From a virus (taxonomy: Duplodnaviria > Heunggongvirae > Uroviricota > Caudoviricetes), in the IMG/VR virus record IMGVR_UViG_2690316224_000012, positions 1 to 42,694 of that record: a DNA stretch of 42,694 nt; one strand, written 5' to 3'. How positions within the stretch are numbered: position 1 is the first letter of the stretch; each line of letters starts with the position of its first letter. Below the pieces are notes generated by a model. The model was not told the DNA's origin. It saw only the letters and a list, made by a program, of their open reading frames with translations, and made no database searches. Of the stretch, positions 1-42,694 are shown one piece after another. A program made the translations under genes and the position numbers.

Positions 1-1248
1 ATGGCACTGAATATTCCATTCAGAAATGCGTACTATCGTTTTGCATCCAGTTACTCATTTCTCTTTTTTATTTCCTGGTCGCTGTGGTGGTCGTTATACG
101 CTATTTGGCTGAAAGGACATCTAGGGTTGACAGGGACGGAATTAGGTACACTTTATTCGGTCAACCAGTTTACCAGCATTCTATTTATGATGTTCTACGG
201 CATCGTTCAGGATAAACTCGGTCTGAAGAAACCGCTCATCTGGTGTATGAGTTTCATCCTGGTCTTGACCGGACCGTTTATGATTTACGTTTATGAACCG
301 TTACTGCAAAGCAATTTTTCTGTAGGTCTAATTCTGGGGGCGCTATTTTTTGGCTTGGGGTATCTGGCGGGATGCGGTTTGCTTGATAGCTTCACCGAAA
401 AAATGGCGCGAAATTTTCATTTCGAATATGGAACAGCGCGCGCCTGGGGATCTTTTGGCTATGCTATTGGCGCGTTCTTTGCCGGCATATTTTTTAGTAT
501 CAGTCCCCATATCAACTTCTGGTTGGTCTCGCTATTTGGCGCTGTATTTATGATGATCAACATGCGTTTTAAAGATAAGGATCACCAGTGCGTAGCGGCA
601 GATGCGGGAGGGGTAAAAAAAGAGGATTTTATCGCAGTTTTCAAGGATCGAAACTTCTGGGTTTTCGTCATATTTATTGTGGGGACGTGGTCTTTCTATA
701 ACATTTTTGATCAACAACTTTTTCCTGTCTTTTATGCAGGTTTATTCGAATCACACGATGTAGGAACGCGCCTGTATGGTTATCTCAACTCATTCCAGGT
801 GGTACTCGAAGCGCTGTGCATGGCGATTATTCCTTTCTTTGTGAATCGGGTAGGGCCAAAAAATGCATTACTTATCGGAGTTGTGATTATGGCGTTGCGT
901 ATCCTTTCCTGCGCGCTGTTCGTTAACCCCTGGATTATTTCATTAGTGAAGTTGTTACATGCCATTGAGGTTCCACTTTGTGTCATATCCGTCTTCAAAT
1001 ACAGCGTGGCAAACTTTGATAAGCGCTTGTCGTCGACGATCTTTCTGATTGGTTTTCAAATTGCCAGTTCGCTTGGGATTGTGCTGCTTTCAACGCCGAC
1101 TGGGATACTCTTTGACCACGCAGGCTACCAGACAGTTTTCTTCGCAATTTCGGGTATTGTCTGCCTGATGTTGCTATTTGGCATTTTCTTCTTGAGTAAA
1201 AAACGCGAGCAAATAGTTATGGAAACGCCTGTACCTTCAGCAATATAG
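1..1248 (+). CDS. cscB: Sucrose:H+ symporter (LacY/oligosaccharide-H+ symporter family MFS permease), CscB-like
   Basis: 415-aa polytopic membrane protein; N-terminus MALNIPFRNAYYRFASSYSFLFF recalled as CscB; position next to argW is consistent with the known csc locus location. Recalled, not searched. Confidence 0.8.
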   Translation: MALNIPFRNAYYRFASSYSFLFFISWSLWWSLYAIWLKGHLGLTGTELGTLYSVNQFTSILFMMFYGIVQDKLGLKKPLIWCMSFILVLTGPFMIYVYEPLLQSNFSVGLILGALFFGLGYLAGCGLLDSFTEKMARNFHFEYGTARAWGSFGYAIGAFFAGIFFSISPHINFWLVSLFGAVFMMINMRFKDKDHQCVAADAGGVKKEDFIAVFKDRNFWVFVIFIVGTWSFYNIFDQQLFPVFYAGLFESHDVGTRLYGYLNSFQVVLEALCMAIIPFFVNRVGPKNALLIGVVIMALRILSCALFVNPWIISLVKLLHAIEVPLCVISVFKYSVANFDKRLSSTIFLIGFQIASSLGIVLLSTPTGILFDHAGYQTVFFAISGIVCLMLLFGIFFLSKKREQIVMETPVPSAI

Positions 1249-1689
1249 ACGTAAACTTTTTCCGGTTGTTGTCGATAGCTCTATATCCCTCAACCGGAAA
1301 ATAATAATAGTAAAATGCTTAGCCCTGCTAATAATCGCCTAATCCAAACGCCTCATTCATGTTCTGGTACAGTCGCTCAAATGTACTTCAGATGCGCGGT
1401 TCGCTGATTTCCAGGACATTGTCGTCATTCAGTGACCTGTCCCGTGTATCACGGTCCTGCGAATTCATCAAGGAATGCATTGCGGAGTGAAGTATCGAGT
1501 CACGCCATATTTCGCTATCAGGATTCTGTGTGATGGTTACATCGCCCGGCTCAGGGCTGTTTAGTCATCAGCGCTTTCTGACAGTGCTGAGATTTCAACC
1601 TGTTGCAGTAAAAATGAGTAGATATAAGGCAAGTGTGCTGCCAAACCCATCTTTTACGGGGTGAAGGTAGATTTCGTTTGAAGGGTATC

Positions 1690-1704
1690 TGGTGTCCCCT
1701 GCAG
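1690..1704. repeat. attL core (direct repeat of argW 3' end), TGGTGTCCCCTGCAG
   Basis: Exact 15-bp copy of the tRNA 3' terminus at 41612..41626; flanking sequence diverges immediately. Confidence 0.7.
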
Positions 1705-1777
1705 ACATCTACTTGACGAGGCAGGGGATTGATTGGAATGGTGTTTTTTAGATATGAGAAATATTTTACCCGCTATT

Positions 1778-1978
1778 TTACCCATTGGCGCGGCTTAAGA
1801 GCTTATTTTTGAATTCACAATGGTCACGATATAACCATCTTGCTCGCCCGTGGATAACTTTGGCTTTAGGCAGGTCCCCGGACTTAATCCGGTCATAGAT
1901 GAAGGTTTTACCGAAGCCAGTATCGGCCATGATGAATTTCAAATCAACCAGTGAATCAGGCTGTAGTTCGTGTTGCAT
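1778..1978 (-). CDS. torI: Excisionase / recombination directionality factor, TorI (AlpA-family) -like
   Basis: 66-aa ORF at the prophage end opposite the IntS-like integrase; size, position and recalled KplE1 synteny match TorI. Two ATTTTACCC repeats overlap its 3' end. Confidence 0.7.
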   Translation of the reverse strand: MQHELQPDSLVDLKFIMADTGFGKTFIYDRIKSGDLPKAKVIHGRARWLYRDHCEFKNKLLSRANG

Positions 1979-2023
1979 GAGTGCTATCTCCGAATAGGGA
2001 ATCGAACCTGCAAATCAGGCAAT

Positions 2024-2044
2024 AAAAAAACCGCATTGATGCGG
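2024..2044 (-). terminator. Putative intrinsic terminator (minus strand) between early-left genes and torI
   Basis: Hairpin CCGCA-TTGA-TGCGG (2031..2044) preceded on the plus strand by A7, giving a U-run on the minus-strand transcript. Confidence 0.45.
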
Positions 2045-2103
2045 CAATGGCAGGTCTGGATATCTTGAGAAATGAACAGGCCTCATCGAGTGTGAGGCTG
2101 TGG

Positions 2104-2448
2104 TTAGTCCTTGCGTAACTCGCTAATTCTTCTGTAAGTCTCTGGTGCTTTGTTTCCGTGTATCTTCATTTCAGACTTCAACAGAGCAACGAGGGAATCC
2201 CATTCGTTGAGGATGCCTTTGAATGCCGGAACGCGCTTTGCAACCTTGTCGAATGAATCTCTGATTTCTGGGATCTGCTCAACAAGTGCAACGCATCGTC
2301 GGAAATCGGCTGCGTCATGTGGAGCGCCGAAGTGATGACCATAGATATTCTTTTTCAGTCCACATGCGATTGAGGCAAGAGTTGCGCTACTGATGCCGAC
2401 ATCGCCAGTCGATTGCCATTTCAAAACCTTCATAGCCAAATCTGACAT
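2104..2448 (-). CDS. Hypothetical early-left protein (114 aa)
   Basis: Track ORF 2104..2475; start moved to the internal ATG at 2448 (MSDLAMKV...), which has a GGAGA Shine-Dalgarno 6 nt upstream. Confidence 0.55.
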   Translation of the reverse strand: MSDLAMKVLKWQSTGDVGISSATLASIACGLKKNIYGHHFGAPHDAADFRRCVALVEQIPEIRDSFDKVAKRVPAFKGILNEWDSLVALLKSEMKIHGNKAPETYRRISELRKD

Positions 2449-2460
2449 TTCTTGTCTCCA

Positions 2461-2483
2461 ATAAAAAACCGCCATCAGGCGGC
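2461..2483 (-). terminator. Putative attenuator/terminator hairpin between two small genes
   Basis: Minus-sense GCCGCC-TGAT-GGCGGT followed by TTTTTTATT; the upstream gene's stop codon lies in the loop. Confidence 0.35.
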
Positions 2484-2642
2484 TTGGTGTTCTTTCAGTT
2501 CTTCAATTCGAATATTGGTTACGTCTGCATGTGCTATCTGCGCCCATATCATCCAGTGGTTATAGCAGTCGTTGATGTCCTCTGCTTCGATAACCCTGTC
2601 GAATGGCTCTCCATTCCATTCACCTGTGACTCGGAAGTGCAT
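2475..2642 (-). CDS. Hypothetical small protein (55 aa)
   Basis: Below the track threshold; ATG at 2642 with GGAGA 6 nt upstream; translates MHFRVTGEWNGEPFDRVIEAEDINDCYNHWMIWAQIAHADVTNIRIEELKEHQAA; stop overlaps the downstream track start (TGATG). Confidence 0.4.
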   Translation of the reverse strand: MHFRVTGEWNGEPFDRVIEAEDINDCYNHWMIWAQIAHADVTNIRIEELKEHQAA

Positions 2643-2800
2643 TTATCATCTCCATAAAACAAAACCCGCCGTAGCGAGTTCAGATAAAAGAAATCCCCGC
2701 GAGTGCGAGGATTGTTATTGTCTTTTCTTCGTGCATTTGTCGCACTTTCGGCACCATCCAGATAGGCACATCCGTCCGCAATTAACACATATAGGCCACA

Positions 2801-3082
2801 TCATTTTTCCTCTTTTGGTTTATGAATCTGAATGGTCATGCCGCTTTGAGTGGTGACTACAATGACAGAACCAGGCTGAAGACTGTTAAGATTGAATGCT
2901 TCGTAAAACGAATCCAAGGCCAGCGTTTTTTTATTCTTTCGGTTCCACCAACGCCATCCCTTGCTACAGGCTACACTGACAATCCACTGCCCACTCCTGT
3001 AAGCCATATAAAACCAGATGAGCAAAACCTGAAGGAATGCTATCCAGTCAATAATCGTATATTTCGCGAAGGAGTCCATCAC
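2801..3082 (-). CDS. Hypothetical protein (93 aa, hydrophobic N-terminal half)
   Basis: ORF whose start overlaps the upstream gene's stop by 4 bp; same orientation as the early-left operon. Confidence 0.5.
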   Translation of the reverse strand: MMDSFAKYTIIDWIAFLQVLLIWFYMAYRSGQWIVSVACSKGWRWWNRKNKKTLALDSFYEAFNLNSLQPGSVIVVTTQSGMTIQIHKPKEEK

Positions 3083-4263
3083 TTCACCTCCTGCTGCGGT
3101 GCTGCTGGCATTTCACGCCAGTGCGTAACTGAGTGCGGATCCGGATATTCAGTGCCATCATCCCAGCGATTGCCATTCCACATTGCAGACCACATCTCAC
3201 CGTCTTCATACATGACCATTACCGGAATTAACTTATCCGGCATTCGCTCACTACAGCTTATCCAACCATCCGGAGTTACCGGAGTTGGTCCATCGAATTC
3301 GGGCATGTCAGGACCTTTTCTGATAGCTTTAGCCAGCTCCAGCGGGTCATCGTAAAGCCAGTCGCCAGTTTGTGGGTGATTTGCTTCTGCAAGCTGCGCA
3401 GCCCATTCAAGACCATCTTTTTGACCTTGGAGATAATCAAGCGGCAACTCTTCATGATTACTTGCAGGTTCGGCACTATGAAGCATGGCAGCGTGGCAGG
3501 CATCCTCAACGTTCTTCACTGCATCTGCGCAGTAGTTATAGCGATTGCATTCCACTAACTTCTGCTTGAGATTTTCAATTGCTTGCGCGACATCAGCCTG
3601 TATTGGCGGAACGGCTGTTTGCTCTCGAACGTCATTAGGCGCTATAGGTTCTGCTGCCAACTGACTGGCATATTTGTTAATGGTAACGATAAGCTCTTGC
3701 TCAGCCTCATCCAGACAATCACCGATACCTCGCCTGTCACCGTCAAAATCATCGAAATCGGCACGAATCTTGGCAACCTTCAGGATTGCGGACAACACTT
3801 CACTAGGAATTACCGGATAGTTGGTTGACGTTTCCGCGATTTCCCGAAAATTATTGGTTGACGAATTCTTATTTTCCCGAAAGTTTCCGGACTGAAGCAT
3901 GGCGGCGCGGCAGGCGTTCCAGCCTCTCACCTCTGCAATAGCGGCAACAGCATCAACCGCGTACATGCTAAGAGGATTAGGCATTGGTTTTTCTTCCGGT
4001 ACTACTGGAACGGGGGGAGCGGCGTAGACCTCAATAATTCCATTATCAATAGGCCATTCTCCATCCTTGAGGTAGTCACTTGTGCCGTCAACTTGCTGTT
4101 CTGCAATGTGGAATGCACCTATTGGTTTTGCTTCCAGCGATGCCAGAGCAATCCGTGCCAGTTCTTCCGCTTCTTCTGCTGGCAGTACAACGTTGCTACC
4201 CGGTCCGTATGTTTCGCGCCACTGCTTGATTGTCAGCAGTCGCTCTTTGGTTATAGTGGTCAT
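3079..4263 (-). CDS. Phage protein with C-terminal DUF551-like domain
   Basis: 394-aa ORF; Trp-rich C-terminal segment (MWSAMWNGNRWDDG...HWREMP) resembles the DUF551 domain common in enterobacterial prophage early regions. Confidence 0.65.
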   Translation of the reverse strand: MTTITKERLLTIKQWRETYGPGSNVVLPAEEAEELARIALASLEAKPIGAFHIAEQQVDGTSDYLKDGEWPIDNGIIEVYAAPPVPVVPEEKPMPNPLSMYAVDAVAAIAEVRGWNACRAAMLQSGNFRENKNSSTNNFREIAETSTNYPVIPSEVLSAILKVAKIRADFDDFDGDRRGIGDCLDEAEQELIVTINKYASQLAAEPIAPNDVREQTAVPPIQADVAQAIENLKQKLVECNRYNYCADAVKNVEDACHAAMLHSAEPASNHEELPLDYLQGQKDGLEWAAQLAEANHPQTGDWLYDDPLELAKAIRKGPDMPEFDGPTPVTPDGWISCSERMPDKLIPVMVMYEDGEMWSAMWNGNRWDDGTEYPDPHSVTHWREMPAAPQQEVK

Positions 4264-4273
4264 TTGTTATGCC

Positions 4274-4471
4274 TCAATACACGAAATCTGTTTTAAATTC
4301 ATGGTTACATTCTGGACAGCATGTTTCGTAACCTTTTATTTCTTCACATGCCTGTTTAGCTCCAGAAAACTCCCAGAAATCTGGATCACAAAGCAGATCG
4401 AAATTGTGACCACATTTGGGACATTCGGTATCAAGTGACAGACTCCAGTAGGCAGTGATGTTTTTATCCAT
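4274..4471 (-). CDS. Small zinc-ribbon-like protein (CxxC...CxxC)
   Basis: Track ORF begins with TTG at 4504; internal ATG at 4471 has AAGGAG upstream and abuts the upstream stop; two CPxC pairs. Confidence 0.5.
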   Translation of the reverse strand: MDKNITAYWSLSLDTECPKCGHNFDLLCDPDFWEFSGAKQACEEIKGYETCCPECNHEFKTDFVY

Positions 4472-4472
4472 A

Positions 4473-5024
4473 TCACTCTCCTTTGATGCGAATGCCTGTT
4501 GCAATGCTGTTTATGATGCTGTCAGTGCATGGGGTAGAAAGCTGGGCATCTCCAGCAATTTTCATGACCTCAACATCTGCATATCGAATACCGAGGTGTA
4601 TCAGACCGGCTATGCCTGACTTAAGCCGAGCATTTTCCATAAATAGAACTTTTGCCCGCTGTTTTTCTGCTTCAAGCTCAACGCGCAGCTTCCCAACCGT
4701 AAGCGCAATTTCCTCGTTCTCCTGGTCGCGGCGTTTGATGTATTGCTGGTTTCTTTCCCGTTCATCCAGTAATGCCAGCACGGTAGCTGGATTGGCTGCG
4801 GAGATGAATTCAGCATTGGCCTGCTGTTCCATTTGGAAATCTTCATCGAAACCGCTTTCAGGATGCGCTCCTTCAATTCTGCAAATGGGAAGATATCCAA
4901 CAACTTCACGATGAATTAGCGCATCACCAGCATCAAATCTCTCCTCTCCATATTCGAGCGACCACACACCACACGTTGCTTTCTCTGCCTTTTCACGCAG
5001 TGCCTGATAGTCAATCTCGCTCAC
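4473..5024 (-). CDS. Ead/Ea22-like family protein
   Basis: N-terminus [17 protein letters not shown] and coiled-coil centre typical of Ea22-like proteins of lambdoid early-left regions. Confidence 0.65.
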   Translation of the reverse strand: MSEIDYQALREKAEKATCGVWSLEYGEERFDAGDALIHREVVGYLPICRIEGAHPESGFDEDFQMEQQANAEFISAANPATVLALLDERERNQQYIKRRDQENEEIALTVGKLRVELEAEKQRAKVLFMENARLKSGIAGLIHLGIRYADVEVMKIAGDAQLSTPCTDSIINSIATGIRIKGE

Positions 5025-5482
5025 TGGCTGCCTCCTTTACGAAGCTGTTCAGCAATACTTACGCATATCTCTGCGCCTCTAATCAGCCCCGGAACGTTCT
5101 TGTTTGGCCCAACTTCACCATCAACAAAATCAATCATCGCGTTACGAGCCATATCCACGCCCTGCGCCCGCACTTCAGCCAGGAAGGCGTCGGTGGCTGG
5201 GGTTCCCTCTACCACTAACCCTACTGGAGCTAGATATTCTTTCATCCCCGCATTCTCCACAGCCAGCGCCGCGCACTTGTCCTCAAGGTTATCAATCGTG
5301 ATTCCAGCAGAACGACACTCCCGCAACGCAGTTTCCAGTTTTGATTCAAGTTCACCGAACTTACGGACAAGATATTCAGCGTTTGTTTCGTTAACCTTTA
5401 AATCTCGTGGGATGCATTTACCTTTCAGAAAACCATCCATCTCAATTAGTGACATTTGTTTCATTTCTTCCCACTCCGCCAC
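5021..5482 (-). CDS. Hypothetical early-left protein (153 aa)
   Basis: ORF translationally coupled (4-bp overlap) to the downstream Ea22-like gene. Confidence 0.55.
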
Positions 5483-5621
5483 ATTGCATTCAGATATTTG
5501 TTTTGATTCACTGATGGAAAAGAATTTCTCTTAAGCAATTCCTCTCTCGATGGCATTGGCTTTACGCGTTGGCGAATAATCATTTCTGCCGGAAGAATGC
5601 CGAGATTGTATGCAAGTCCTC

Positions 5622-5903
5622 TCATGATTTACTCTCCACGAACTGGTCAATAGCCATGCTAAGTGATACACCTAAAGTCTCGATATGCTGCTGAATATCC
5701 TGTAGCGTCTGCGCCTGAGATAACAGGATTTCACGGTTGCATAACTCTTTGACCAGATGCTCAAACTTGCTGTAATAACCGATACGGCTTAGTGTTTCTT
5801 TCCCTGCATTCTCGCCTTCTTTGATAATTCCTCTTTCACTAAGAATCAGGTCGTGTTTTGTTCCGGTAATAACGTATTTTCCGAGGTCGATGTTTAGCTT
5901 CAT
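5622..5903 (-). CDS. Hypothetical protein (93 aa)
   Basis: ORF in the minus-strand early operon; no recognisable motif. Confidence 0.5.
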
Positions 5904-5919
5904 TGTTAATTATTCCATG

Positions 5920-6234
5920 TTAATTTATTCGTATACCTGCTCTTTCTTCATCGAGTTTTTTTAGCTTGTATCGCATAGCTCTTACTGAATAAATTGAGCG
6001 GCAGGTTGCAATTGCTATTTCTTCTGCGGAGAACTTACCGAAAAGTGATACTTCGGCTCTTGTCCAGCGTCTTCCACGAAGTCGGCTAACAATGTCAGCG
6101 CCAATCCTTGTTGCTTTCGCCATTACTGCTTTTTCAGTCCTTTCCAGTTTTTCAGCGATAACTTCAACTGGCATTGTCGCCGCTACTTCGCGCAAGAAAT
6201 CGACTTCCCATTTCTCCCATGGAGTCTTTTTCAT
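5920..6234 (-). CDS. Hypothetical protein with internal two-fold repeat (104 aa)
   Basis: Two similar ~35-aa segments (WEKWEVDFLREVA... and WTRAEVSLFGKFS...); possible DNA-binding repeats. Confidence 0.5.
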   Translation of the reverse strand: MKKTPWEKWEVDFLREVAATMPVEVIAEKLERTEKAVMAKATRIGADIVSRLRGRRWTRAEVSLFGKFSAEEIAIATCRSIYSVRAMRYKLKKLDEERAGIRIN

Positions 6235-10008: not shown

Positions 10009-10281
10009 TTACCTCGCCGTCAATTGTTTTGATTTCCGGTAGCCTGCCGCGTAAACGGCTACGTTTGGCAGGCAAATACTTCCACTGCATTCATCTGCCT
10101 TCTTGCAGCGAAGGCTTCCGAGTGAAGCTGCTTTGTCTGCTCTGACGCAACCAGAGAGCTTTAGCGCAATTTTTCGCGCCAGTCGCTGCTCTTGCATTGC
10201 CTGTTCACGTTGAGCCTGTCTGCGTGCTCTGCGGCGATTTCTGGCGTTATCGTCAGCCAGATATGTAATGACTACTGTCAT
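10009..10281 (-). CDS. N-like transcription antitermination protein (P22 gp24-like)
   Basis: Arg-rich N-terminal motif (NARNRRRARRQAQRE); C-terminus VAVYAAGYRKSKQLTAR resembles P22 gp24; first gene after pL/nutL; GGAGGT SD. Confidence 0.65.
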   Translation of the reverse strand: MTVVITYLADDNARNRRRARRQAQREQAMQEQRLARKIALKLSGCVRADKAASLGSLRCKKADECSGSICLPNVAVYAAGYRKSKQLTAR

Positions 10282-10899: not shown

Positions 10900-11289
10900 T
10901 TAGTCAGCGAAGGTTAAGACGAGAATTACCTTAATGATGTCTGCTACAACAGACACGGCCATAGATAAACCAAAGACGATCCAAGCCATAGAGATGTCTT
11001 CACTACCATCGTATAGAGTTCCGTAATCACTGGTGTAAGGCGTAAATGTCGCGCCTTGATACAACAAGTATAAGCTTGATCCATAGAGGATAAATGCAGA
11101 TATCCCTTGTATTGCTATGATCACTAGAATCATGAAACGAGCTGATCTATGCGCCCAAGCCTGGCTTATTTTTTCTGATAGAGATTTCGCAATAAAAGCA
11201 TGCGCTAAGCCGTAAATTGTCGAGATTGCCAACATCCCAAAAAAGCTTGCTATAGCGGTTCCAACCATAATCGCCCCTTGCGTGATCAA
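10900..11289 (-). CDS. Small integral membrane protein in the lysogenic (cI) operon, rexAB-position
   Basis: 129 aa, about three predicted TM segments; start overlaps the cI stop by 4 bp, so it is co-transcribed with the repressor; lies between cI and OL exactly where lambda carries rexA/rexB. Confidence 0.6.
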   Translation of the reverse strand: MITQGAIMVGTAIASFFGMLAISTIYGLAHAFIAKSLSEKISQAWAHRSARFMILVIIAIQGISAFILYGSSLYLLYQGATFTPYTSDYGTLYDGSEDISMAWIVFGLSMAVSVVADIIKVILVLTFAD

Positions 11290-12002
11290 ACCAGCCTTAG
11301 TTTTGTCTCAATTGCAACGCCTATAATCTTGCAGTTTCCATTGATTGGCACGAGAGGCCATGCAGGATTAAGTCCCTTGAGGTATTTATTTCCGCCGTCG
11401 ATTATCAGCTTCTTGAATGTTGCTTCGTTAGAGTCAGAAAGTTTTGCTATGACCAAGCTGCCGTTGATCGCCTCCCTTCCGGTATCGAAAAGAACGAATG
11501 TTCCCTCTGGAATGCTTAACCCAACCGGTGCCGTCATTGAATCACCTTCCACTTTAAGCCAGAACGCATTACCTTGAATATGCGCGTCAGACTCAAGCCA
11601 AACATCTATGTCTTTAATGGTGTATGGTTCGCATGCTTCACACCACGAGCCAGCCTGGATACTGCTTAACACCGGATACCTCTTTCCTGCTCTGTATTCC
11701 CCTGCATACCTTACGTTGGCATCGCTCTTAAGGCTTTCTGCCTGTTCTGCAACCTTGGCAGCAATTGACTGGCTAAAATCAGCAATTGAGACTTGCAACA
11801 GCCGTGCAAAACCAGATGCAACCTCAACGTTTAGCGCGTTTCTGCCATTAAGATAATGCCCTACCGCTCCTTGGGTGATACCCAGTTCATCAGCGATTGA
11901 GTATTGGGTTATTCCCAATTCTTTCTTTTTTGACTCATACAAAGCCTTAAGCCGCTTAGCGTCTTCGAGCTGTTCTGTCGTCAGTGATTTTTTATTTTCC
12001 AT
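11286..12002 (-). CDS. cI: CI-type prophage repressor (HTH plus S24 LexA-like autopeptidase domain)
   Basis: 238 aa; N-terminal HTH (ITQYSIADELGITQGAVGHYLNG); Ala-Gly site (SIQAGSW); Ser/Lys dyad motifs GDSM and FKKL; divergent from cro across the operators. Confidence 0.9.
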   Translation of the reverse strand: MENKKSLTTEQLEDAKRLKALYESKKKELGITQYSIADELGITQGAVGHYLNGRNALNVEVASGFARLLQVSIADFSQSIAAKVAEQAESLKSDANVRYAGEYRAGKRYPVLSSIQAGSWCEACEPYTIKDIDVWLESDAHIQGNAFWLKVEGDSMTAPVGLSIPEGTFVLFDTGREAINGSLVIAKLSDSNEATFKKLIIDGGNKYLKGLNPAWPLVPINGNCKIIGVAIETKLRLV

Positions 12003-20337: not shown

Positions 20338-20412
20338 GGGTCAGTCGTATAAAGGTCATTACGGAAGGCTGTTAACCTTCTTATCGTGGTTCGAGTCCAC
20401 GCTGTCCCGCCA
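20338..20412 (+). tRNA. tRNA-Asn (anticodon GUU), phage-encoded
   Basis: Hand-folded cloverleaf: anticodon stem GAAGG/CCTTC with loop CUGUUAA, T-arm CGTGG-TTCGAGT-CCACG, 3' CCA; one acceptor-stem and one D-stem mismatch. Confidence 0.5.
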
Positions 20413-20417
20413 AATAT

Positions 20418-20493
20418 GCTGGTTTAGCTCCAATGGTAGAGCAGTCGCCTTGTAAGCGAATGGGTAGCGGTTCAAGTCCGTTAACCAGCACCA
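20418..20493 (+). tRNA. tRNA-Thr (anticodon UGU), phage-encoded
   Basis: Hand-folded cloverleaf: perfect 7-bp acceptor stem, D-arm GCTC/GAGC with GG loop, anticodon loop CUUGUAA, T-loop TTCAAGT, 3' ACCA. Confidence 0.6.
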
Positions 20494-40292: not shown

Positions 40293-41450
40293 TCACTCCA
40301 CCTTCCCATCAAGCCATTCCGCCCACCACTGCATCATTTCTCTGCGCTTATCTAGATACTGAGCATGGTTGTAAATCCCGCGCACAGATCCGCCGTTGGC
40401 ATGTGCAAGTTGCACTTCAATAGCGTCAGCAGGCCATTCGTGCTCGTTCATAATCGTGCTGAATTCATGCCTGAATCCGTGACCGCTTTCCAGACCCTCA
40501 TAGCCGATTTGTTTAATCACAAGTAGCACCGCGTTCTCGCAGATTGGCTTCTTCTTATCGTTGCGTCCGGCAAAAACAAACTCTGATACTGGTTTGGTGA
40601 TTGAGCTTAGCGTAGTGAGAAGTTCAACCACCTGGTCTGACATAGGAACCACATGAATTTTGCGTCCCTTCATCACACTGGCGTCGATAGTGATAATCCT
40701 GTTTTCAAAATCGACGTTCTTCCATTGCATGGAACGAAGCTCTTTCGTTCTTAGGGCTGTGTAGCGTAAAACTTTGGTCGCAATGAGCGATACGATGCTT
40801 CCTGAAAATGTTGCCAGTGCTTTGTTGAATGCCGGGATCTGGTCTGCAGGAAGAAACGGGAAGTTCTTCTTGCGGTATCCTTTCATGGCGTCTGCAAGGT
40901 CAGGTGCCGGGTTATATTTAGCCCTACCAGTGACAATAGCGTAACGGAAAACCTCGCCGCATCTTCTGCGTGCTTTGTTGGCTCGCTCCATTGCGCCGCG
41001 ATCTTCAAATCTGCGGATTACTTCCAGCAGTTGCATCGGCTCAATATCCTGAATTTCAAGGCCGCCGATGATAGGTAAAATGTCGTCATCAAACATTTTT
41101 GCAAGTTCAGTTGCATAGCCTACTGACCAGACTTGCTTCTTGTGCTCGTACCATTCCTTGTAAATCGCACTAAAGGAATTGTTGTTAGACGAAGCCTTTT
41201 TCGCTTTTACCGGATCGATGCCAACCGAGATGTCTTTCCTCGCAGTCCATGCTTTATCCCTTGCCTCCTGCAAAGTCATTAGCGGATATTTTCCTACGGT
41301 CAGGATTTTCTCCTTACCGTCAATCTTGTAGCGAAGCTGCCATACCTTTTTCCCTGACACAGGGACATAAAGGTACAGGCCATTACCATCGAGTAGGCGG
41401 TATGGTTTTTCTTTCGGCTTTGCTGCTTCAATCTGCTTAACGGTGAGCAT
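40293..41450 (-). CDS. intS: Tyrosine integrase, IntS (KplE1/CPS-53) type
   Basis: Track ORF begins with GTG at 41486; ATG at 41450 gives 385 aa starting MLTVKQIEAAKPKEKPYRL..., as recalled for E. coli IntS; adjacent to argW. Confidence 0.85.
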   Translation of the reverse strand: MLTVKQIEAAKPKEKPYRLLDGNGLYLYVPVSGKKVWQLRYKIDGKEKILTVGKYPLMTLQEARDKAWTARKDISVGIDPVKAKKASSNNNSFSAIYKEWYEHKKQVWSVGYATELAKMFDDDILPIIGGLEIQDIEPMQLLEVIRRFEDRGAMERANKARRRCGEVFRYAIVTGRAKYNPAPDLADAMKGYRKKNFPFLPADQIPAFNKALATFSGSIVSLIATKVLRYTALRTKELRSMQWKNVDFENRIITIDASVMKGRKIHVVPMSDQVVELLTTLSSITKPVSEFVFAGRNDKKKPICENAVLLVIKQIGYEGLESGHGFRHEFSTIMNEHEWPADAIEVQLAHANGGSVRGIYNHAQYLDKRREMMQWWAEWLDGKVE

Positions 41451-41611
41451 GGGTAAAAATCCGGTGGGTAAAATTATTTTATCCACTTTTTACCCGTCAT
41501 GGAGTGCGGCTGTCAACGATCTGACGCGAACCATTACGAACTGTGAATCTACGGAAGGCTTGATATTCAGGGGATTTTGCGGACTGGTACGGATGGGAGC
41601 GAACTGATAAA

Positions 41612-41626
41612 TGGTGTCCCCTGCAG
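41612..41626. repeat. attR core (argW 3' end), TGGTGTCCCCTGCAG
   Basis: Identical 15-mer to 1690..1704. Confidence 0.7.
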
Positions 41627-41686
41627 GAATCGAACCTGCAATTAGCCCTTAGGAGGGGCTCGTTATATCCATTTAACTAAGAGGAC
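41612..41686 (-). tRNA. argW: tRNA-Arg (anticodon CCU), argW
   Basis: Reverse complement GTCCTCTTAGTTAAATGGATATAACGAGCCCCTCCTAAGGGCTAATTGCAGGTTCGATTCCTGCAGGGGACACCA folds as a cloverleaf with a CCU anticodon. Confidence 0.9.
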
Positions 41687-41761: not shown

Positions 41762-42694
41762 TTATGCTGGGTTTTTATCATTTTTCTTAATGTTTTCCGC
41801 ACGTTCTGCTTTTTGGCGTGCTTCTGCTTTACGCTTGTTGCTCATGTCGTTACGAATCTGTGCATGACTCATTAACGCGAAGATAAAGGTGCCGCCGCAG
41901 ATGTTCCCCGCTAAAGTAGGTAGTGCGAAGGGCCAGATGAAATCGCTCCAGTGCAGCGTGCCGTTAAACACCAGATAGAGGATTTCAACAGAACCGACAA
42001 CGATGTGGGTGGTGTCACCCAGTGCAATAAGCCAGGTCATCAATATAATCACCACAATCTTTGCCGCACCCGCAGCAGGAAACATCCAAACCATAGTGGC
42101 GATCAGCCAGCCGGAAATGATCGCGTTGGCAAACATCTCGCTGGGGGTGTTCTTCATCACATCCATGCCGATTTTGACAAATGCATCGCGAGTTTCTTCA
42201 TTGAAGATAGGCATATATTCAAATGCCCATGCAGCAATACCTGTCCCGAGAATATTACCCAGCAGCACGACGCCCCATAATCGCATAAGTAAGCCGACGT
42301 TGCTCATTGTCGGTTTTTGCATGACGGGTAGTACCGCAGTCACGGTGTTTTCGGTAAATAATTGCTGGCGGGCCATAATGACGATAATAAAACCAAAGGT
42401 ATAACCGAGATTCTCCAGTAAGAAGCTGCCTGGCACTCCTTCCAGTTCGACATGAAATATCCCTTTTGCCAGTAGCGAAGCGCCCATCGACAGACCCGCC
42501 GCAATGGCTGACCACAGTAGCGCCATTGCGTCGCGTTCCAGCTCTTTTTCACCATCCTGGCGGATATGCTCATGAATTGCCATCGCCCGGGAGGGGAGTC
42601 GGTCTTCATCTATTTCTATTTTTTTGCCGCGCTCTTTTTCTTCGCTCTCAACTTCAATTTCGTCGCTGTGTTGATCAATTTTGTCGTTGTCCAT
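41762..42694 (-). CDS. yfdC: Formate/nitrite transporter-family inner membrane protein YfdC-like
   Basis: 310 aa, acidic N-terminus then about six TM segments; position next to argW matches E. coli yfdC. Confidence 0.75.
   Translation of the reverse strand: MDNDKIDQHSDEIEVESEEKERGKKIEIDEDRLPSRAMAIHEHIRQDGEKELERDAMALLWSAIAAGLSMGASLLAKGIFHVELEGVPGSFLLENLGYTFGFIIVIMARQQLFTENTVTAVLPVMQKPTMSNVGLLMRLWGVVLLGNILGTGIAAWAFEYMPIFNEETRDAFVKIGMDVMKNTPSEMFANAIISGWLIATMVWMFPAAGAAKIVVIILMTWLIALGDTTHIVVGSVEILYLVFNGTLHWSDFIWPFALPTLAGNICGGTFIFALMSHAQIRNDMSNKRKAEARQKAERAENIKKNDKNPA

Follow-up and report, generated by a model that had tools for sequence, protein, structure and literature searches.

What are the three small genes that sit between hairpins at the left end of an Escherichia coli prophage, next to the excisionase gene torI? 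They lie at positions 2,104 to 3,082 of the IMG/VR virus record IMGVR_UViG_2690316224_000012, all 42,694 nucleotides (nt) of which (hereafter the window) form a segment of the E. coli chromosome holding a complete prophage of about 40 kb in the tRNA gene argW. A preliminary description of this DNA had set out three open reading frames (ORFs) here, of 55, 114 and, for a hydrophobic product, 93 amino acids (aa), and all three are present on the minus strand where it placed them, the last with 93 or 92 aa according to its start codon. We consider it likely that this stretch forms the xis-proximal end of a leftward early (PL) operon under N antitermination, in a P22-like prophage of the HK620/Sf6 type inserted in argW, and that its three genes are independent accessory cassettes separated by terminator linkers.

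Do these genes belong to known families? The preliminary description had recognised none and had proposed remote-homology and structure searches. In fact each gene falls in a populated family (phrog_676, phrog_1229 and PF15944/phrog_667), so that the homology searches yielded three known families, while the PDB offered no match for two of the proteins, ORF114 and Orf55. The 55-aa gene, orf55 (2475-2642, minus strand), encodes an acidic protein (isoelectric point 4.7, charge -7) and is the lambdap35 gene of lambda (52 of 55 residues identical, or 95%, E = 3e-40) and the ORF55 of phage 434 (94.5% protein identity). Its product matches phrog_676 from end to end (1-55 of 55, E = 5e-39), and 87 phage records give a tblastn match, among them that of 434, where it is annotated as ORF55. 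Its position is also that of its namesake: a DNA alignment with lambda, HK022 and Gally, and the annotation of 434, place it between the terminator tL4 and the xis-proximal terminator. Compared with lambda, Gally and the window, the HK022 genome record (AF069308; L002 3130-3143) lacks one nucleotide of orf55, at the fourth base. HK022_33 accordingly has another annotated start, which gives 59 aa, and the missing base reflects either a true frameshift or an error of sequencing.

The 114-aa gene (2104-2448, minus strand) is the ORF114 of phage 434 (97.4% identity) and gp32 of HK022, where the counterpart, HK022_32, is annotated as 'N15 early protein homolog'; the protein matches phrog_1229 with an E-value of 9e-52. 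Neither ORF114 nor Orf55 hits a significant family in Pfam, NCBIfam or PADLOC scans, and sequence and profile searches of the PDB found no match for ORF114 or its family profile. The family is nevertheless very large: a profile search over 1.84 billion cluster representatives (50% identity) retrieved 2814 relatives at E <= 1e-3, 623 of them at E <= 1e-10. Eight residues (W11, S20, P43, D45, D48, R51, C52 and W83) are invariant in an alignment of 62 members that includes the window protein, and the AlphaFold2 model is a compact all-alpha fold of seven helices with high confidence (predicted local distance difference test (pLDDT) 93.5, predicted template-modelling score (pTM) 0.87). The Foldseek hits of this model in BFVD, which come from Clavibacter phage CN1A, uncultured phages and a Sylvanvirus, are all uncharacterised proteins. 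Homologues with 54-79% identity occur in Cronobacter, Citrobacter, Salmonella and Pantoea, and the codon differences from HK022 and Gally comprise 8 synonymous and 1-2 nonsynonymous changes.

The third gene (2801-3079, 92 aa, from an ATG, or 2801-3082, 93 aa, from a GTG; minus strand) encodes a member of PF15944 (E = 4e-36, 123.4 bits against a cut-off of 27, covering profile positions 2-84 of 84) and of phrog_667. NCBI names its homologues DUF4752; tblastn finds the gene in 70 phage records, and cross-genus homologues keep 64-72% identity. Its product has a single hydrophobic segment (residues 8-26, mean hydropathy 1.78), after which come 7 lysines or arginines and no aspartate or glutamate. 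By the positive-inside rule, this composition suggests a small bitopic protein of the inner membrane with its N terminus outside and its C terminus inside. The predicted structure consists of a long N-terminal helix and a small, conserved C-terminal beta-hairpin (pLDDT 73). In BFVD, this model found no more than a fragment from its own family, and literature searches with DUF4752, the RefSeq accessions and the PHROG identifiers found nothing.

What separates these genes? We ran a consensus search for terminators on both strands of positions 1250-6000 (4.75 kb) and compared the result with shuffled sequence: 13 terminator-like sites were found, versus 4.7 +/- 2.2 in the shuffles. Five terminator-like hairpins stand on the sense (minus) strand within 2030-2713. 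Four of them carry a T-run (2713-2692; 2681-2662; 2485-2466, which spans the orf55 stop codon; and 2045-2030, which precedes torI); the fifth (2098-2080) has none and falls inside the remnant of an xis gene discussed below. The first two form a twin hairpin (2662-2713) that folds at -24.1 kcal/mol (z = -5.8) and that none of 200 shuffles equalled in stability. Two other folded segments are weaker (z = -2.65 and -2.0), the former being the hairpin at the end of orf55, at -13.4 kcal/mol.

Most of these hairpins have names elsewhere. The first of the twins (2692-2713) is tL4 (AATCCTCGCACTCGCGGGGATT plus TCTTTTAT; 2682-2713, minus strand), which differs from the tL4 of HK022 (X51962) by one loop base. 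In the t-L4 of 434 (M60848), the stem reads ATCCTCG/CGAGGAT, with a T-A pair replacing the T-G wobble of the window, and the helix is kept. The second twin, together with its T-run and the GGAG Shine-Dalgarno sequence of orf55, covers 2652-2681 (minus strand) and is conserved in lambda, HK022, 434 and a Salmonella prophage. At the orf55/ORF114 junction, where the preliminary description had noted a hairpin with a T-run, there is indeed one (2466-2485; AAGCCGCCTGATGGCGGTTT plus the T-run, 2456-2485, minus strand), the loop of which holds the orf55 stop codon and a spurious ATG ('TGATG'). This hairpin is identical in lambda, where it stands directly before xis; in 434 it has one stem mismatch, and M60848 does not annotate a terminator there. 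The further terminator described between the ORFs and torI was likewise found, at 2030-2045: GCCGCATCAATGCGG followed by seven T (2020-2045, minus strand) is the sequence of the terminator t'-I in M60848, and the hairpin is also present in HK022 and Gally. Since tL4 and t'I are both GC-rich stem-loops with a T-run at the annotated positions (X51962, M60848), we identify the window hairpins, by sequence, as these already annotated terminators. Rfam contributed no RNA family between 1250 and 3300.

How were genes and hairpins put together? Aligned with lambda, HK022 and Gally, the window reveals its joints. In lambda, the orf55-end terminator runs straight into a tail, CTTGCGTGTAATTGCGGAGACTTTGCG, and then into xis. 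At this point HK022 and Gally have an inserted cassette, in which ORF114 with its Shine-Dalgarno sequence is followed by another, similar hairpin (t'I), and only then comes the same tail; in the window the ORF114 cassette is followed by torI in place of xis. A trace of an earlier arrangement has survived: after the ORF114 stop, 72 nt, or about 24 codons (2031-2102, minus strand), translate as HSLTLDEACSFLKISRP... and match the 5' end of annotated P22-type xis genes by tblastn (70.8% over 24 aa with P22 xis, E = 9e-4; also the xis genes of UAB_Phi20, L, ST104, SfI and SfII, with E up to 1e-2). The same remnant is found in HK022, 434, Gally and a Salmonella prophage. A P22-type Xis N terminus in this place is therefore the remnant of a recombination-module exchange, and in the window it marks a past replacement of an int/xis module by torI.

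The upstream joint tells a similar story. A module of about 70 nt, comprising the twin hairpin and GGAG (window 2652-2720), is nearly identical in lambda, 434, HK022, the window prophage and a Salmonella prophage. It precedes orf55 in the E. coli phages and stands directly before the ORF114 homologue in the Salmonella prophage (L011 3925-4000); judged by its distribution, it behaves as a portable mosaic linker. HK022 has a gene for an ASCH-domain protein at the place of DUF4752. The comparison thus portrays DUF4752, orf55 and ORF114 as independent accessory cassettes joined at conserved hairpin linkers, rather than as a dedicated three-gene system.

Phage 434 is the nearest precedent. Its annotated order (M60848: t-L4, ORF55, ORF114, t'-I, xis, int) recurs in the window in the same orientation, as far as the excisionase gene, and the twin hairpins and t'I correspond. 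However, the window excisionase is TorI, of the KplE1/HK620 type, and the integrase lies at the other end of the prophage, whereas 434 has a lambda-type xis-int pair; 434 also has another ORF upstream of tL4 where the window has DUF4752, and its mismatched orf55-end stem is followed by a run of 8 T. Lambda shares the twin hairpins before orf55, the terminator-like hairpin at its end and the PL operon, but has ea8.5 instead of DUF4752 and no ORF114, so that the orf55-end hairpin comes directly before xis. HK022 carries both ORF114 (HK022_32) and orf55 (HK022_33), with tL4 annotated. In Gally, mEp043 and mEp213, all three genes are contiguous and the DNA is about 97% identical to the window; these three phages and HK022 differ from it in having a lambda/HK022-type xis-int instead of torI. 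The arrangement is therefore an ordinary one, already catalogued as ORF55 and ORF114 of 434, DUF4752, tL4 and t'I. Overall, 497 phage records match parts of the 1.6-kb block, and 4462 of 5426 complete E. coli genomes match some part of the 2-kb region.

The setting within the prophage agrees with a position at the far end of an early operon. The left end is marked by the att core TGGTGTCCCCTGCAG (1690-1704), a 15-nt exact repeat found again at 41612-41626 in argW. About 75 nt inside this end lies torI (1778-1978, minus strand), the last gene of the early-left operon, which encodes an excisionase, or recombination directionality factor; the assignment rests on the ORF, on a match to the excisionase family phrog_66 and on the homologous RefSeq locus, where torI is named and the DNA is 98% identical over a query of 1250-3300. 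Upstream of the three ORFs, on the same strand, are genes for an N-peptide-family antiterminator (10009-10281) and a CI-type repressor (11286-12002). With these two genes upstream and torI and the prophage end alongside, the three ORFs are the distal part of the PL operon, transcribed toward torI. With att core, torI, CI, the N-peptide gene and the hairpins all located, the earlier picture of small accessory genes in a terminator-punctuated distal early-left operon next to att and torI is borne out. Are they morons, with a promoter and a terminator of their own? The terminators are present, but a crude consensus scan found no sigma-70-like promoter on the sense strand between 1979 and 3700; the three genes are therefore not classical morons.

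By analogy with lambda, this organisation suggests how the genes could be expressed. RNA polymerase unmodified by N would stop at tL4 and its twin, at the orf55-end hairpin and at t'I, so that the three genes and torI would be silent in the lysogen and would be transcribed together only after derepression of PL and the action of N. IntS is made at a low level all the time, and production of TorI alone triggers excision (PMC2951348); because of this, silencing of torI by terminators would be a sensible safeguard for modules of the KplE1/HK620 type. The three proteins may then be non-essential early modulators that bind host targets. For Orf55, RNA polymerase is a tentative candidate. AlphaFold and RoseTTAFold gave a high-confidence alpha/beta model of the lambda protein that superimposes on T7 Gp2 at 2.07 Å, and a location of Orf55 between the beta' subunit and region 1.1 of sigma-70 was proposed explicitly as speculation (PMC8614690). 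The Orf55 residues that this model uses, W9, N43, R45 and E47, are conserved in the window protein. Like Gp2, an inhibitor of the host RNA polymerase, Orf55 is a small acidic alpha/beta protein made early, but it differs in showing no detectable sequence similarity to any PDB chain. With ea22, ea8.5 and orf73, orf55 also belongs to a lambda region, 'bin', tied to inhibition of host replication initiation (PMC9239242, citing earlier work). The searches made for ORF114 and DUF4752 supported no specific target.

Several observations weigh against this reading of the locus. tL4 and t'I are database annotations, and termination at the window hairpins is itself a prediction. The Salmonella and Pantoea loci lack a terminator between ORF114 and xis; together with the stem mismatch at the end of orf55 in 434, this means that the barrier is not universal. 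The protein functions are likewise predictions: the Gp2-like model of Orf55 is speculative according to its own authors, and Orf55 matched no PDB chain by sequence at E <= 10. The ORF114 model matched nothing in the PDB by Foldseek (best E-value 4.3), and when 62 diverse relatives of ORF114 were scanned against Pfam, the matches were scattered chance ones, with no Pfam relationship. As for DUF4752, the global confidence of its model is low (pTM 0.29).

Could one or more of the three proteins instead be, as the preliminary description had suggested, an anti-defence factor produced early from PL, such as an inhibitor of restriction, of abortive infection or of RecBCD? We judge this unlikely. In related prophages the accessory early-left region lies downstream of an anti-RecBCD gene (Abc2), and the small size and strong acidity of Orf55 recall many protein-mimic inhibitors. 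However, none of the three proteins shows homology to characterised anti-defence proteins, PADLOC gives no match at E <= 1 for any of them or for the product of the adjacent DUF551 gene, and the supplements of two screens of phage accessory genes list none of them. The distribution of ORF114 can be read in the same direction, since members of its family lie among small early genes on Pseudomonas megaplasmids and in phages for which no integrase is annotated within 2.5-4 kb, and the relative in Vibrio phage D56 lies about 2 kb from a Lar-like restriction-alleviation gene. Yet no conserved functional neighbour of the distant homologues emerged in the genomic contexts examined, no fold match was obtained in the PDB or among functionally annotated BFVD entries, and no annotated relative of the three proteins carries a function.

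These distant relatives also bear on what ORF114 itself may do. The phages in question are Klebsiella BU9, Vibrio D56 and Aeromonas ST4; the plasmid relatives share 26-31% identity and come from 109 Pseudomonas records in PLSDB, mostly megaplasmids of 250-520 kb. On one such plasmid (L016; NZ_OX638702.1, 112229-112678), genes for an RNA ligase family protein, an AAA ATPase, an SOS-response-associated (SRAP) peptidase and a 3'-5' exonuclease lie within about 5 kb. A 333-aa protein (P0116) has two tandem ORF114-family domains. In the only informative fusion, a 558-aa protein (P0217), the partner of the domain is a phage tRNA nucleotidyltransferase that has an HD domain; an internal start-like sequence, 'MKDKMQ', occurs just before the ORF114-family domain, and this protein is probably the product of two merged adjacent gene calls. 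Other apparent fusions, to MazG-like, ERF, Ea22 and Kil proteins, look like recombinant or frameshift chimeras. One may imagine that ORF114 is the founding, unnamed member of a very large phage and megaplasmid family with one specific conserved activity, for example the binding or inhibition of a conserved host nucleic-acid or defence factor, and that its repeated placement before excisionase genes in Escherichia, Salmonella, Pantoea and Mannheimia reflects a need to act at prophage excision; we hold this proposal to be unlikely.

That placement raises a more specific question: is ORF114 tied to site-specific recombination, modulating excision, integration or their timing? Its homologue stands just before xis both with a lambda-type Xis (434, HK022 and Gally) and with TorI (the window), and just before the excisionase gene in a Salmonella prophage (62% identity), in a Pantoea prophage with Exc and an integrase (54%) and in Mannheimia phage 1152AP2 (33%), where the homologue has annotated terminators on both sides and lies two genes upstream of the integrase. 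However, lambda excises normally although it has no ORF114, and the relatives on megaplasmids and in the three phages with no integrase annotated within 2.5-4 kb imply that the function of ORF114 is not specific to excision. The xis-proximal position is, moreover, a known hotspot for mosaic accessory genes, and the P22-type xis remnant shows that ORF114 moved along with module exchanges. A role in recombination is for these reasons very unlikely in our view, and an accessory cassette carried beside the excisionase gene remains the reading that we prefer.

Is the TGATG at the orf55/ORF114 junction a stop/start link, as the preliminary description had it? The motif is present, and its ATG (2475) lies in the loop of the hairpin AAGCCGCC-TGAT-GGCGGTTT. 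The frame that it opens encodes 123 aa and extends the 114-aa ORF in phase, and some automatic gene calls do give 123 aa (P0001). However, the 114-aa ORF itself begins at the ATG at 2448, 27 nt past the loop ATG and preceded at 7 nt by GGAG, and this start is annotated alike in RefSeq, 434, HK022 and Gally. The same TGATGG loop occurs in lambda, a phage with no 114-aa gene. The stem is followed by 6 T in the window but by 7 in Gally and 8 in 434, and in these two phages the difference takes the loop ATG out of the reading frame of the downstream gene. The phrog_1229 alignment begins at residue 10 of the 123-aa form, and ORF114 homologues in other genera start with MSDLAMK. The TGATG link thus does not hold for the 114-aa gene, ORF55 and ORF114 are rejected as an overlapping pair, and translational coupling of the 55-aa ORF to a 123-aa form of its neighbour seems to us extremely improbable.

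A genuine TGATG overlap exists further upstream. A 394-aa gene (3079-4263, minus strand) with a C-terminal DUF551 domain (E = 1e-17) stands where P22 and Gally have their eaA genes, EaA being the name given at the equivalent position in Gally. Its TGA (3079-3081) overlaps the ATG of DUF4752 (3077-3079), with AGGAGG 7 nt upstream, and the two genes are annotated as abutting at the homologous RefSeq locus. The overlap is consistent with translational coupling of this pair.

Hardly credible, finally, is a reading of the three ORFs as functionless remains and of the hairpins as mere joints of recombination that regulate nothing. In its favour, mosaicism is heavy here and an xis pseudogene remnant is present, orf55 and DUF4752 have few synonymous relative to nonsynonymous differences (in very close comparisons with small numbers), and PL-operon neighbours in lambda were dispensable for plaque formation in a CRISPR interference screen, the tested set of which excludes lambdap35 (PMC10695390). 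Against it, full-length ORF114 and DUF4752 are intact across genera at the identities given above, part of the 2-kb region is carried by the thousands of complete E. coli genomes already counted, ORF114 combines invariant residues across 62 diverse members with a confident predicted fold, and the hairpins are conserved with canonical T-runs.

The remaining features of the window frame the prophage. A tyrosine integrase gene (40293-41486) lies near its right end, before argW (tRNA-Arg(CCT), 41612-41686), which contains the second copy of the att core. A gene of the formate/nitrite-transporter family (41762-42694) closes the window, and a 415-aa ORF (1-1248, plus strand) opens it; at the homologous RefSeq locus, the latter is an oligosaccharide transporter of the major facilitator superfamily, beside cscA. 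Between this transporter gene and the att core, a short DUF4942 fragment is annotated at that locus (window about 1328-1510, minus strand), which may be a relic of another mobile element once present in argW. The prophage also has tRNA-Asn(GTT) and tRNA-Thr(TGT) genes of its own (20338-20493).

What does this locus mean for lambdoid phages? Its sequence holds no novelty: the records of 434 and HK022 in GenBank already give the order of the genes, the names of the ORFs and the terminators. Discovery potential lies only in the large family of ORF114, which has no name and which the domain databases do not cover. The three genes are extremely common early genes of lambdoid phages, one of them in lambda itself. 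A phenotype for any one of them would annotate thousands of prophages, those of Shiga-toxin phages included.

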